Below are positions 50,087-55,379 of a DNA stretch of 64,000 nucleotides, in pieces; within the stretch, counting starts at the first letter, position 1; every line of letters begins with the position of its first letter. The position numbers and the translations under genes were made by a program. The notes beneath the pieces are model-generated. The model was given only the letters and a program-made list of their open reading frames with translations, was not told the origin of the DNA and did not search any database. This DNA comes from Anaerolineae bacterium (lineage in GTDB: Bacteria > Chloroflexota > Anaerolineae > J102), in contig JALWZT010000109.1 in assembly GCA_027002405.1 (NCBI GenBank), positions 4,624-68,623 on the forward strand. The letters are read 5' to 3'.

Positions 50087-50612
50087 TCACTGCCGGCGCC
50101 AGGGCGCACGCGTCGTTTCGCCAAATCGATGTAGGCTTTGCGTCGAATTCCTAACTTGGTTAGATGGGGCATGAGTTCTGTAGGGTTCCTCATTATCGAT
50201 GATCTCATAATGAGCATGTTCCAACGCTTTATCAAGATATTCGGTCAATATCATCTGCTTTCTGACGATTATTATGGGTGAATGCAAACAAAATATCCAA
50301 TGATTTCCGATATCTGTCAACGTCTCGATAGCCAATTGGTAAAAAGCGTTCGGCGCTGCCATAGCGTTCTGGACTGGCAAGAAACTCATCCCGGGAATAA
50401 TGTTGTAATTGTCGCAGAATCTGAAGATATTCGTCCAGCTTTTGCAACCGACGCAACAACACTTCACGCCTGACCATGAAGCGTCCTCCGCTTGTAAGCC
50501 CGCCGTTGTGTGGTCAGATAGGGGAGGAAATCGAAATAGGCGGCAAAAACGCGGGCCAGTGTTTCCTGTGCGGTGATATCGAATGGGAGAGAATGAGATA
50601 CTGCTCGGGTAA
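50087..50612 (-). pseudogene. decayed TA copy: mntA with ~300-bp internal deletion (50476-50612), hepT 5' half with frameshift (50290-50477) fused to hicB upstream region and first ~27 codons (50161-50280)
   Basis: DNA near-identical to 53860-54458 (hepT-mntA) and 56955-57045 (hicB 5' end); junctions visible. Confidence 0.6.
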
Positions 50613-50751
50613 TCATAATTTCATTTCACTGAAAACCATTCATCTCGCGACCGCTCGACGCGTGCAATTCGTGTCATTTGTGAAAATTCGTAGTTGTGAA
50701 ATTCGTGGTTGCATCATTTGTGGCGTAAAGCCAACAACTCCAGCAAACGAC

Positions 50752-51159
50752 TCACCGTGATCGGTTCAATACCATACTCGGCCAACCGCTGCGCCAATTC
50801 CAAATCCCGAGTGATATCCTCATCGCGGCTAACAACGTATTGAGCCCCTCCGATAACAGCGGTTTCCAACACTCGTCATCAGGATCACGACACAAACGCA
50901 GGTCGCCCGAGACTGGGACCAATCGGGCAACTTCGGCAACGTTTCGTACAAAGGCCTCGGCATCCGCTGGGGTCGTACGCCGAATTTTCATGATGCGAGG
51001 CCGACACAGCACCTCCAACAGCTCTTCGAGCATAGGAGGAGACATCACAACAGTCAATTGGCCTGCTTTCCCTGCTTCTACGAGACGATCCGGGAAGCCC
51101 CGAGGATTCAAAAATGCTGACACCCAAATATTCGTATCAACCACTGCGACGACGGCCAC
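50752..51159 (-). CDS. PIN-domain toxin (TIGR00305-like), copy A, apparent -1 frameshift after ~codon 96; authentic C-terminus AVIGGAQYVVSRDEDITRDLELAQRLAEYGIEPITVSRLLELLALRHK is in another frame
   Basis: VVDTNIWVSA...LCRDPDDE then frame change; identical to copy B. Confidence 0.65.
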   Translation of the reverse strand: MAVVAVVDTNIWVSAFLNPRGFPDRLVEAGKAGQLTVVMSPPMLEELLEVLCRPRIMKIRRTTPADAEAFVRNVAEVARLVPVSGDLRLCRDPDDECWKPLLSEGLNTLLAAMRISLGIWNWRSGWPSMVLNRSR

Positions 51160-51454
51160 GACGCTGCTCTCTTACTTCCTCACGGGCCATGGTGATTTCG
51201 GACTCGATTTGGGCAGGGGTGTAAGAAGTTGGACGCTCGTGAATTTTGCTCAAGAGTTCATCGAGCTGGCGCCATGCCATCTGCTGACGTTCCTTTTCAA
51301 GGGTTGCCAGAGACTGTAGCCGGCGATATTCCTCGATAGAAATCAATACAGCCAGAGGCTCGCCGTCACGTTCTACCACGAGAGGCGTTTGCAAGTCTGT
51401 CTTGGCTACGTCATAATCAGCGGCAGTTTTTGGAATTGTCTTGGATTTGGTCAT
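51137..51454 (-). CDS. Phd/YefM-like antitoxin partner of PIN toxin, copy A
   Basis: TPLVVERDGEPLAVLISIEEYRRLQ; 23-bp overlap with toxin gene. Confidence 0.7.
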   Translation of the reverse strand: MTKSKTIPKTAADYDVAKTDLQTPLVVERDGEPLAVLISIEEYRRLQSLATLEKERQQMAWRQLDELLSKIHERPTSYTPAQIESEITMAREEVREQRRGRRRSG

Positions 51455-51529
51455 CGTACAACCTCCTGGCTTTCAGTGTACCAAGTTCGCCCGTTCTTGT
51501 CATCTCTGGGAGCCACGAATCTCGCGACC

Positions 51530-51800
51530 ACGAATCTTGGACCAGCCAACCTGCTTCTCCTTGCAAAAAACCGGGAAAGGAGACAAGGTGAGGGGGCGAT
51601 AAGGTGACAAGGAGACAAGGTGAGGGGGTGAGGGGGTGACTTCTCCTCATGACCATCTCACAAAATTCGCATGGCGGCCTCAAACGCCATCTGATACACA
51701 TCCAAATCACGATGCGTCTTGATCGCCCGGCTCACACTCCTTGTCTCCTTGTCTGCTTGTCTCCTTGTCTCAGAATCGCCTTGATTGGACGTCATGTGAA
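51530..51800. repeat. ~260-bp palindromic element (ACCAGCCAACCTGCTTCTCCTTGCAAAAAACCGGGAAAGG...GGTGACAAGGAGACAAGGTGAGGGGGTGAGGGGG ... CTCACACTCCTTGTCTCCTTGTCTGCTTGTCTCCTTGTCTC), copy 1
   Basis: copies at 52690-52950 and partial 55380-55520; ORF-track peptides MIWMCIRWRLRPPCEFC... are translations of this element. Confidence 0.7.
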
Positions 51801-51901
51801 AGTGGCCGCTGAGTTGGTGATGGGCCGCTGATGGACGCTGATTGTTTATCTATGTCCAATTCACGGTGCAAAACTTCACTCATTACCTGGCCCCTCTTGT
51901 C

Positions 51902-52399
51902 TCACTCGCCCACGACTTCAAGCGCTTTCTGATACAGAGCTTCTGCTATCCAGAATCCACCATCTTCTCGCAAGGCATCTAATTCCTGTCGCAAGGATTC
52001 AATGCGCCCATCCAACCTGGCCCGCATCAAAATCCCCACGACGCCGGTCTTCGGCAGATCGTAAAGCGTGGCGATCCGTCTGCCATCCGCTTCATCAATC
52101 AACAATAGATCTGCTTCCATCTCTACTGCCAGCGCGATGGCTTCCGCCTCGCCATTATCGAGCTCCCTTTTCAATATCCTCATGAGAGGCTCATTTGCAA
52201 CGTTAACGACTTGAATCCAGCCTGTGTTTTGGCCAATTCGCACTTCCTCAGCCCCAGCGCGACCTTTTCCCTCGATCACGACTTCTTGCCATACTGCCGG
52301 AGGAATGATAATGGCGCCAAACATCTCCCGGAGTAACGCCAATCGCCCGATGCGCGCCAGGTGTATCAACGTGGATGAATCACTGACGACCTTGGGCAT
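51902..52399 (-). CDS. DUF3368-domain protein (PIN-like putative toxin)
   Basis: SSTLIHLARIGRLALLREMFGAIIIPPAV...GEAEAIALAVEMEADLLLIDEADGRRIA. Confidence 0.75.
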   Translation of the reverse strand: MPKVVSDSSTLIHLARIGRLALLREMFGAIIIPPAVWQEVVIEGKGRAGAEEVRIGQNTGWIQVVNVANEPLMRILKRELDNGEAEAIALAVEMEADLLLIDEADGRRIATLYDLPKTGVVGILMRARLDGRIESLRQELDALREDGGFWIAEALYQKALEVVGE

Positions 52400-54034: not shown

Positions 54035-54458
54035 GAAGCGTCCTCCGCTTGTAAGCCCGCCGTTGTGTGGTCAGATAGGGGAGGAAATCGAAATACTGGC
54101 GGATAACGAGGGAATAATAAGCGCCCTTATCGAAATCGGGCGTGTGGTAGATAAGTCTATTATGTCGCACAGCTTCATATTTCAGGAGGATGTTCGCCGT
54201 GTTGAGCAACACCACGTCGACGTTATCGAAGCCCGCAACTGCAAGAGCGGCTAGAAGATCGAGCTTTGAGAAGGATTCCGTTCCAGGCCGAAGGACAATC
54301 CCCAGATCGAGATCACTCTCGCCATGAGATCGTCCTGACGCCATCGAACCAAACATATAGACGGCCTGAATATCGGGATAGGCGGCAAAAACGCGGGCCA
54401 GTTTTTCCTGTGCGGTGATATCGAATGGGAGAGAATGAGATGCTGCTCGGGTAATCAT
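54021..54458 (-). CDS. mntA: MntA minimal nucleotidyltransferase antitoxin
   Basis: GSMASGRSHGESDLDLGIVL (GSx10DxD). Confidence 0.85.
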   Translation of the reverse strand: MITRAASHSLPFDITAQEKLARVFAAYPDIQAVYMFGSMASGRSHGESDLDLGIVLRPGTESFSKLDLLAALAVAGFDNVDVVLLNTANILLKYEAVRHNRLIYHTPDFDKGAYYSLVIRQYFDFLPYLTTQRRAYKRRTLHGQA

Positions 54459-54504
54459 AATTTCATTTCACTGAAAACCATTCATCTCGCGACCGCTCGA
54501 CGCG

Positions 54505-54570
54505 TGCAATTCGTGTCATTTGTGAAAATTCGTAGTTGTGAAATTCGTGGTTGCATCATTTGTGGCGTAA
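54505..54570. promoter_or_regulatory. three direct repeats ACGAATTTCACAA / ACGAATTTTCACAAA / ACGAATTGCACG (minus-strand sense) 40-100 bp upstream of mntA: candidate operator/promoter of hepT-mntA; second copy at ~50666-50723
   Basis: read in sequence. Confidence 0.4.
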
Positions 54571-54593
54571 AGCCAACAACTCCAGCAAACGAC

Positions 54594-55001
54594 TCACCGT
54601 GATCGGTTCAATACCATACTCGGCCAACCGCTGCGCCAATTCCAAATCCCGAGTGATATCCTCATCGCGGCTAACAACGTATTGAGCCCCTCCGATAACA
54701 GCGGTTTCCAACACTCGTCATCAGGATCACGACACAAACGCAGGTCGCCCGAGACTGGGACCAATCGGGCAACTTCGGCAACGTTTCGTACAAAGGCCTC
54801 GGCATCCGCTGGGGTCGTACGCCGAATTTTCATGATGCGAGGCCGACACAGCACCTCCAACAGCTCTTCGAGCATAGGAGGAGACATCACAACAGTCAAT
54901 TGGCCTGCTTTCCCTGCTTCTACGAGACGATCCGGGAAGCCCCGAGGATTCAAAAATGCTGACACCCAAATATTCGTATCAACCACTGCGACGACGGCCA
55001 C
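54594..55001 (-). CDS. PIN-domain toxin, copy B (identical to copy A including frameshift)
   Basis: identical 135-aa ORF. Confidence 0.65.
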   Translation of the reverse strand: MAVVAVVDTNIWVSAFLNPRGFPDRLVEAGKAGQLTVVMSPPMLEELLEVLCRPRIMKIRRTTPADAEAFVRNVAEVARLVPVSGDLRLCRDPDDECWKPLLSEGLNTLLAAMRISLGIWNWRSGWPSMVLNRSR

Positions 55002-55296
55002 GACGCTGCTCTCTTACTTCCTCACGGGCCATGGTGATTTCGGACTCGATTTGGGCAGGGGTGTAAGAAGTTGGACGCTCGTGAATTTTGCTCAAGAGTT
55101 CATCGAGCTGGCGCCATGCCATCTGCTGACGTTCCTTTTCAAGGGTTGCCAGAGACTGTAGCCGGCGATATTCCTCGATAGAAATCAATACAGCCAGAGG
55201 CTCGCCGTCACGTTCTACCACGAGAGGCGTTTGCAAGTCTGTCTTGGCTACGTCATAATCAGCGGCAGTTTTTGGAATCGTCTTGGATTTGGTCAT
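54979..55296 (-). CDS. Phd/YefM-like antitoxin, copy B
   Basis: identical to 51137-51454. Confidence 0.7.
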   Translation of the reverse strand: MTKSKTIPKTAADYDVAKTDLQTPLVVERDGEPLAVLISIEEYRRLQSLATLEKERQQMAWRQLDELLSKIHERPTSYTPAQIESEITMAREEVREQRRGRRRSG

Positions 55297-55379
55297 CGTA
55301 CAACCTCCTGGCTTTCAGTGTACCAAGTTCGCCCGTTCTTGTCATCTCTGGGAGCCACGAATCTCGCGACCACGAATCT

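Follow-up and report, generated by a model that had tools for sequence, protein, structure and literature searches.

Chromosomal islands and cassette arrays of toxin-antitoxin (TA) genes with duplicated and degenerate modules are known from the TA cassettes of the Vibrio superintegron and, likewise, from the expanded VapBC and HEPN-MNT sets of cyanobacteria and archaea. The present analysis concerns a block of four TA genes, a Phd-PIN pair followed by an mntA-hepT pair, which occurs twice in a stretch of 64,000 nucleotides from an Anaerolineae bacterium (assembly GCA_027002405.1, contig JALWZT010000109.1, positions 4,624 to 68,623 of the forward strand; the whole stretch is called the window). 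The two occurrences, copy A and copy B, most probably represent a genuine segmental duplication in a fast-evolving TA island of a polysaccharide locus, with one copy decayed. Head-to-tail packing, paralogous copies, toxins being lost first and short inter-cassette repeats are features which the locus has in common with TA islands of the Vibrio superintegron type, whereas no integrase or attC-like sites were found here (no dedicated attC model being applied) and the island is situated in a strain-variable polysaccharide locus.

In type VII systems, RX4HXY is the ribonuclease (RNase) and AMP-acceptor site of HepT and GSX10DXD the adenylyltransferase site of MntA (Yao et al., PMC7641770). Copy B resembles the described pairs, e.g., SO_3166/SO_3165 of Shewanella oneidensis (PMC7641770), in that the MNT gene comes first and overlaps the HEPN gene behind it and that both motifs are present. 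Copy A, unlike these, is without both motifs. Moreover, other assemblies compared here hold full-length hepT genes which are frameshifted or have DY duplicated just past the motif. To VapBC-like modules of Phd/YefM and PIN_3 (TIGR00305) proteins, the locus corresponds in the order of antitoxin before toxin, in a 23-nt overlap and in the family matches, but the toxin is a pseudogene in both copies and the Phd score lies at the Pfam threshold. Finally, HicAB modules with a UPF0150-type HicB are represented by a fragment designated hicB', which is like the resident intact hicB of the window in leader and N-terminus, but keeps 25 codons without a hicA and is 91% identical to the resident gene, whose own hicA is truncated.

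The duplicated block and its recovery in independent assemblies

The copies were delimited by self-BLAST of the window, in which both were apparent, and by a global alignment of A against B. Copy A extends over 50300-51558 and copy B over 53858-55400; both lie on the minus strand, the orientation of all genes in the region, and contain Phd, PIN_3, mntA and the 5' part of hepT. A near-identical two-copy block had been proposed in a first-pass annotation of this DNA and is borne out by these comparisons, while the ranges given there (50476-51460 and 54021-55300) fall inside the true block and are too short at both ends. The features of the block and its surroundings are as follows.

49549-50172, minus strand: intact AbiEii/DUF6036-like nucleotidyltransferase gene, 207 amino acids (aa); Pfam AbiEii 24.2, DUF6036 23.7
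50181-50299, minus strand: hicB' fragment of 119 bp from another, diverged hicB, comprising its degenerate -10 region, its leader and 25 codons
50300-50477, minus strand: hepT remnant of copy A, codons 1-59, no Pfam match, without RX4HXY
50464-50616, minus strand: mntA remnant of copy A, 50 aa, no Pfam match, deletion junction 50535/50536
50714-51159, minus strand: PIN_3 pseudogene of copy A, same as copy B in 446/446 nt, 4-bp deletion included
51137-51454, minus strand: Phd antitoxin gene of copy A, protein same as in copy B, one synonymous difference at 51437
51559-51847, minus strand: inter-cassette repeat D2 upstream of copy A (51535-51780 against 52695-52940, 96%)
51662-53857, minus strand: stretch between the copies, with hepT 3' half, gmd fragment, UPF0175 and truncated DUF3368-PIN, D2 repeat, UPF0175 and PIN (165 aa)
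53621-54034, minus strand: intact hepT of copy B, 137 aa; NCBIfam HepT_toxin, Pfam HepT-like
54021-54458, minus strand: intact mntA of copy B, 145 aa; NCBIfam MntA_antitoxin, Pfam Polbeta
54556-55001, minus strand: PIN_3 (TIGR00305) toxin pseudogene of copy B, 4-bp deletion (TGTT) after codon 96
54979-55296, minus strand: Phd/YefM-family antitoxin gene of copy B, 105 aa; Pfam PhdYeFM_antitox, NCBIfam phd_fam
55372-55489, minus strand: relic of the D2 repeat upstream of copy B (from repeat comparison and three-way alignment)
56768-57019, minus strand: resident intact hicB (UPF0150-like); Pfam UPF0150 108.7 bits

In total, 7 substitutions, one inserted base and a 285-bp deletion separate the copies, which are ~99.4% identical. 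Positions 50300-50535 of A pair with 53858-54092 of B, with 4 substitutions and the 1-bp insertion at A 50338; the following 285 bp of B (54093-54377, 95 codons) have no counterpart in copy A; and positions 50536-51558 of A pair with 54378-55400 of B, with 3 substitutions at A 50561, 50600 and 51437. As 1023 bp are matched with 3 differences, a likeness by chance is excluded. The start-to-start spacing from A to B amounts to 3842 bp, and to 3557 bp past the mntA deletion.

Beyond 51558/55400, a weaker similarity with indels reaches 51661/55489, and in this outer part copy A is a copy of another repeat, namely the middle D2 repeat. The D2 or four-helix-bundle (4HB) type repeat (~250 bp) is placed between TA cassettes at 51530-51860, 52690-52960 and 55372-55489, and also occurs in an independent contig, L003 (2500-2790). 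In a three-way alignment, copy A agrees with the middle D2 repeat up to the 16-nt core AAGCAGGTTGGCTGGT and with copy B beyond it. As A switches partner across this core, the upstream breakpoint of the duplication is located at ~51537-51558, in AAGCAGGTTGGCTGGT.

Independent contigs (short-read contigs and metagenome-assembled genomes, MAGs) were retrieved by exact-protein look-ups and then compared with the window. Contig L001 (ENA ERZ23491050) equals window 54497->51504 at 99.8% and thereby leads from the mntA leader of copy B through the inter-copy stretch to the Phd promoter of copy A. Because L001 starts and ends in the repeat, a linear genome with this contig must hold the repeat twice. 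Contig L008 from the same sample equals window 50655->48282, and the two contigs break at exactly homologous repeat positions (54497 and 50655), which is what short-read assembly graphs are expected to show for a repeat truly present in two copies. L008 and L007 (MAG GCA_027013725.1) carry the deleted mntA, the deleted hepT, hicB', the nucleotidyltransferase and the GT4 glycosyltransferase gene at 99.3-99.96%. In the same MAG as L007, contig L002 features copy B with a full mntA-hepT pair; the MAG thus has both versions, with L007 as the copy A remnant. Likewise, L004 is 100% identical to window 56786->54404, L005 connects a D2-type repeat with Phd-PIN, and the inter-copy stretch is spanned by L001 and by L099. 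Recovery of the copies with distinct flanks, which is taken as the mark of a segmental duplication, was achieved with L001, L002, L004, L005, L007, L008, L009 and L099. Two pattern scans of Joint Genome Institute (JGI) metagenomes, one for the junction described below and one for the PIN indel site, gave no long contigs spanning both copies. The earlier reading in three parts (duplication, decay of mntA-hepT in one copy and an illegitimate hepT/hicB junction) is supported throughout and was reproduced in independent assemblies. An assembly artefact, named there as what would overturn it, hardly agrees with contigs and MAGs from other samples that reproduce both copies with their flanks.

State of the modules in the two copies

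The Phd protein of copy B reaches 29.7 bits with Pfam PhdYeFM_antitox (cut-off 29.8) and 23.3 with NCBIfam phd_fam (cut-off 20.8). Upstream of its gene, a promoter-like ATGACA-17-TACACT with TG is found at 55345->55317 and CCACGAATCT is present twice; as direct repeats overlapping the promoter-like site, the latter could be a candidate operator. The adjoining PIN gene is readable across two frames with the shift after codon 96. An intact allele in contig L006 from another sample (L006 349-783) reads GATGACGA[TGTT]GTGTTGG and encodes a full-length PIN, and these 4 extra bases rule out the frameshift as a programmed or normal feature. With TGTT restored, the protein scores 62.5 bits for PIN_3 and 67.7 bits for TIGR00305 and covers profile positions 3-112 of 115, and the frameshifted open reading frame (ORF) covers only positions 3-91 of 115. 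A full-length PIN domain in a single frame is present in neither copy; judged by these profiles, neither Phd-PIN module is intact. As the 4-bp deletion is common to A and B, either the toxin was inactive before copying or the copies were homogenised afterwards. The 97-bp spacer between PIN and mntA carries the direct repeats that had been claimed for it, a GTGAAATTCGTG-type unit in three copies and a 15-nt unit in two, while the promoter also assigned to it is putative, as a sigma-70 consensus scan found none there.

In copy B, MntA scores 77.5 with NCBIfam MntA_antitoxin NF047752 and 67.4 with Pfam Polbeta, and HepT scores 130.6 with NCBIfam HepT_toxin NF047751 and 114.8 with Pfam HepT-like; the NCBIfam cut-off is 60 in both cases and is an equivalog cut-off. 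The GSX10DXD motif of MntA reads G37-S38-MASGRSHGES-D49-L-D51 in the sequence and the RX4HXY motif of HepT reads R100-NILV-H105-D-Y107 in the translation, the two genes overlapping by 14 nt. Copy B keeps an apparently working type VII pair, in which HepT would act as RNase and MntA would neutralise it by AMPylating the tyrosine of RX4HXY, and in addition a Phd whose toxin is presumably dead.

The corresponding genes of copy A are gutted. An internal mntA deletion of ~300 bp had been reported for this copy; the deletion is present, with a size of 285 bp. It is in frame (95 codons) and removes residues 28-122, GSX10DXD among them, and its junction at 50535/50536 is also found in L007 and L008. 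In copy B, the segment deleted from A is flanked by ATCGAAATA..GGCGG and ATCGGGATAGGCGG, which would fit slippage between imperfect direct repeats of short length. In the hepT remnant, the insertion at 50338 shifts the frame by +1 at codon 47, and nothing is left past codon 59. With both catalytic motifs gone, copy A (50300-50616) does not count as a type VII pair. It would thus code for the Phd antitoxin only, and its toxins and its MntA are presumably dead.

At 50299/50300, hepT is joined to hicB', with ATATCCA passing into ATGATTTCCG; a deletion or recombination junction of hepT with hicB had been postulated at this site and was found there. The hepT sequence GGAAATCAT is directly followed by TGGATATTTTGTTTGCATTCACCCATAATAATCGTCAGAAAGCAG-ATG, the latter aligning with the resident hicB from its -10 region (TGgTATAAT) through the leader to the gene start, and the microhomology at the crossover amounts to at most 1-2 nt. 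L008 and L009 match the junction at 100%, and L007 has it as well. The 25 codons of hicB' correspond to MILTEYLDKALEHAHYEIIDNEEPY and match the HicB/UPF0150 profile at positions 1-27 of 64 only, with 21.5 bits (cut-off 27.3), i.e., the domain is incomplete. The fragment had been matched to the resident hicB at 56955-57049 over 27 codons. Its hicB origin stands, whereas the match runs from 50181-50272 to 56946-57037 over 25 codons at ~91% identity (8 of 92 mismatched), with weaker likeness through the leader and the -10 region to 50299/57061. As it is ~91% identical to the resident hicB compared with ~99.4% between A and B, hicB' is regarded as a relic of a separate, older hicB module; the same comparison rules out a recent exchange with the neighbouring hicB.

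At its other end, hicB' is likewise cut and stops 8 bp short of where the nucleotidyltransferase gene truly starts. When the nucleotidyltransferase was aligned with 15 homologues, a conserved N-terminal extension, RRKAYIxLAKRRVRPGSGS, became apparent, and because of this conservation the gene is taken to span 49549-50172. The left boundary of the first-pass annotation had been derived from a 126-aa ORF at 50087-50467, and this ORF proved spurious. As a real chimeric gene it is rejected, since it overlaps the nucleotidyltransferase N-terminus out of frame and the homologues start at the equivalent of 50172. Homologues of 87-90% identity lie between oxidoreductase and DegT aminotransferase genes in polysaccharide clusters, without an obvious partner antitoxin. 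They are solitary, with no hicB beside them, which excludes hicB as a native upstream partner of the nucleotidyltransferase.

A promoter-like TTGACA-17-GATATT (50320->50292, minus strand, 10/12) is one of the two best in the region. It straddles the junction (-35 element in hepT, -10 element in the hicB' leader) and is directed into the nucleotidyltransferase gene. It is a doubtful possibility that the hepT/hicB' junction was retained because it creates a strong hybrid promoter which would drive the nucleotidyltransferase.

For annotation, it follows that the 50-aa MntA remnant, the 81-aa HepT remnant, the 126-aa chimeric ORF and the 135-aa PIN should not be called functional TA genes, and that the nucleotidyltransferase start should be set at 50172.

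History of the block and competing explanations

The states of the two copies may be arranged in four steps. Initially, the PIN_3 toxin of a Phd-PIN module would have lost 4 bp and turned into a pseudogene. The array of Phd, frameshifted PIN, mntA and hepT would then have been copied ~3.8 kb downstream, presumably by recombination or template switching in the 16-nt repeat core. In a third step, the downstream copy would have lost everything 3' of hepT codon 59 by an illegitimate, microhomology-poor deletion; hepT, which also received a +1 frameshift, would thereby have been joined to a promoter-proximal scrap of the older hicB module directly upstream of the nucleotidyltransferase gene. Lastly, slippage between short imperfect direct repeats would have taken 285 bp (95 codons) out of mntA. 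The first, third and fourth steps can be seen as sequence states, and their order is partly shown by the intermediate contig L009, which combines a full-length mntA with the identical hepT/hicB' junction and the +1 frameshift. As L009 has the junction together with an intact mntA, the junction is older than the 285-bp deletion. For the copying itself, repeat-mediated recombination or template switching with subsequent illegitimate deletion into hicB' would be the simplest account.

The variation among strains is considerable. Three full-length hepT alleles were encountered: an intact one (window and L001), one with an additional DY past the motif and a G67D exchange (L002 and L105), and a frameshifted one (L099 and L104). 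The full-length genes are located at L099 854-1275, L104 464-885, L002 11263-11685 and L105 425-847. In contig L003 (MAG GCA_027028885.1; 2400-3581), the PIN stop codon is the site of a 34-bp tandem duplication and is followed by a D2 repeat and a UDP-sugar dehydrogenase gene, without mntA-hepT. Because Phd-PIN of L003 continues with a different sequence at the PIN stop, the four-gene block is regarded as a composite, and the layout after PIN indicates that the polysaccharide locus past the island differs among strains. From this MAG also comes L099, in which the inter-copy stretch follows PIN-mntA-hepT.

Several observations weigh against a genuine duplication with the history outlined above. 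Only the window has both copies phased on one molecule; the public contigs are short and end at the repeat. The differences between A and B are clustered, with 7 in 50300-50600 (301 bp) versus 1 in 50601-51558 (958 bp; Fisher p = 2.7e-4), which is unexpected if the copies merely duplicated and diverged and which requires gene conversion or a mosaic, inter-strain origin. A tandem-duplication model, moreover, needs an extra large deletion to explain the second copy ending in hicB'. The full-length hepT genes of L099 and L104 carry the copy-A haplotype (the +1 insertion and the single-nucleotide polymorphisms, SNPs, at 50364, 50379 and 50381), and the frameshift may accordingly be older than the duplication, or the copy may derive from the allele of another strain. 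Finally, sites 50447 and 50600 fail the four-gamete test among copy A of the window, L007, L008 and copy B. Over the public contigs, the sites which discriminate the copies are themselves polymorphic among strains. Taken together, the patterns of variation suggest that either the copies underwent gene conversion or strains recombined with one another.

Among the alternatives, the best to survive is an import between strains, which is nevertheless considered rather unlikely. The second copy would have been an already frameshifted or truncated allele, recombined in at the inter-cassette repeats during swapping of the polysaccharide locus. Such an origin would suit the clustering of the differences, the A-type hepT haplotype with its +1 frameshift in the full-length genes of L099 and L104, the quite different locus after PIN in the strain of L003 and a strain breakpoint in the nucleotidyltransferase flank (L009 is 100% identical through hicB' and only ~90% past ~50090). 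However, gene conversion between resident copies accounts for the same patterns, and the Phd-PIN core exhibits 1 difference in 958 bp with the rare 4-bp PIN deletion common to both copies. The outcome would also be the same as for the segmental duplication favoured here, i.e., two copies in one genome, one of them decayed.

It is improbable that the assembler stitched in series what are really alleles of a single locus in co-existing strains. Several structural haplotypes of the island do co-occur in the same sample series, the hybrid Phd-upstream region of L002 could be a mis-join, and the divergence of ~0.6% between the copies resembles that between strains (0.5-0.7%). Nevertheless, L001 was assembled independently from another sample and demands two repeat copies in any linear molecule, and the breaks of L001 and L008 from one sample at the homologous positions 54497/50655 fit a true two-copy repeat. 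Furthermore, the copy-specific flanks are reproduced, upstream by L004/L003 versus L005 and downstream by L001/L002/L099 versus L007/L008/L009.

A site-specific cassette system (integron-like or another array), with the repeats as recombination sites and the second copy as a re-inserted cassette, would match the regular spacing of the TA pairs by the D2/4HB-type repeat and the upstream breakpoint in its conserved core, but is very improbable, since a search of 48-59 kb gave no inverted repeats of at least 30 nt (no dedicated model was run for attC sites), no integrase, transposase or recombinase domain is listed in the precomputed Pfam tables for genes within ~10 kb either side, the downstream end of copy A is located inside hepT and not at a repeat, and D2 is pieced together from a gmd start and part of a four-helix-bundle gene, unlike a dedicated site.

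With a genuine duplication as the preferred reading, the window and the public contigs offer an unusually complete decay series of one TA block in a natural population, in which PIN passes from intact to frameshifted, hepT is intact, frameshifted or truncated, and mntA passes from intact to an in-frame deletion. The series agrees with the usual course of decay, in which toxins disappear before antitoxins, and short inter-cassette repeats apparently serve as recombination points. As a more speculative and doubtful extension, the decayed copy might not be inert and might pass inactivating changes that had arisen in it without harm (the +1 hepT frameshift and three linked SNPs) by gene conversion into functional toxin genes, as perhaps happened in the strains of L099 and L104; if true, duplicated TA remnants would constitute a population-level route for disarming toxins. 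All families and processes involved are already known, and the locus represents ordinary genome decay which leaves the current understanding unchallenged.

Island setting and further repeats

The TA island covers ~7 kb (~50.2-57.1 kb) between GT4 glycosyltransferase and epimerase genes of the polysaccharide locus and holds ~9 TA modules or remnants. These comprise hicB with a truncated hicA, three UPF0175/DUF3368-PIN pairs, one of them with a truncated toxin, the hicB' scrap, two Phd/PIN pseudogene pairs, and one intact and one destroyed mntA-hepT pair. Within the island, antitoxins outlast toxins more often. The hicA after the resident hicB (56625-56768) is cut past ~48 codons and enters a gmd fragment; it covers positions 2-39 of 58 of the HicA_toxin profile and remains under the cut-off. 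Two different N-terminal fragments of GDP-mannose 4,6-dehydratase (gmd) are stranded among the TA modules, at 56432-56611 and ~53340-53500, and no full-length gmd was identified. The patchwork of the D2 repeat includes a gmd-like upstream region with the first 5 codons, similar to the start of the gmd fragment at 56611. Its other pieces are an N-terminal fragment resembling a four-helix-bundle protein (HRDLDVYQMAFEAAMRIL) and the low-complexity sequence GTGAGGGGG.

A genomic island at a tRNA gene or an RNA element was rejected, as no tRNA gene was found in the window and no Rfam match in 47.5-59.5 kb. A compositionally foreign island was likewise discarded, since its guanine-plus-cytosine content of 0.49-0.53 is not distinctive compared with 0.42-0.57 in the flanks. 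A scan of representative genomes with the epimerase reached 78% aa identity at best (MAGs of Anaerolineae and Chloroflexaceae) with uninformative neighbourhoods, the species itself being absent from the representatives, and no ancestral state free of the island was recovered from it. Judged by these best epimerase matches, the host is probably a member of the Chloroflexota/Anaerolineae.

Apart from D2, a dispersed intergenic repeat family occurs in the window, with units of 60-230 bp, rich in CGCAGAT/CAGCGG and found in both orientations; some of the related short-read contigs end there. Its members are located at the following positions.

650-881, 9105-9193, 10383-10448, 21697-22000 and 27974-28384: dispersed intergenic repeats, first part
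35091-35158, 48081-48338, 53487-53553, 58270-58331 and 59146-59283: dispersed intergenic repeats, second part

In addition, a 739-aa ORF (11705-13924) contains an internal tandem duplication of ~946 bp with 92% identity (11708-12651 and 12722-13666), and a 101-bp inverted repeat of 94% identity is located at 17524-17624 and 19300-19400.

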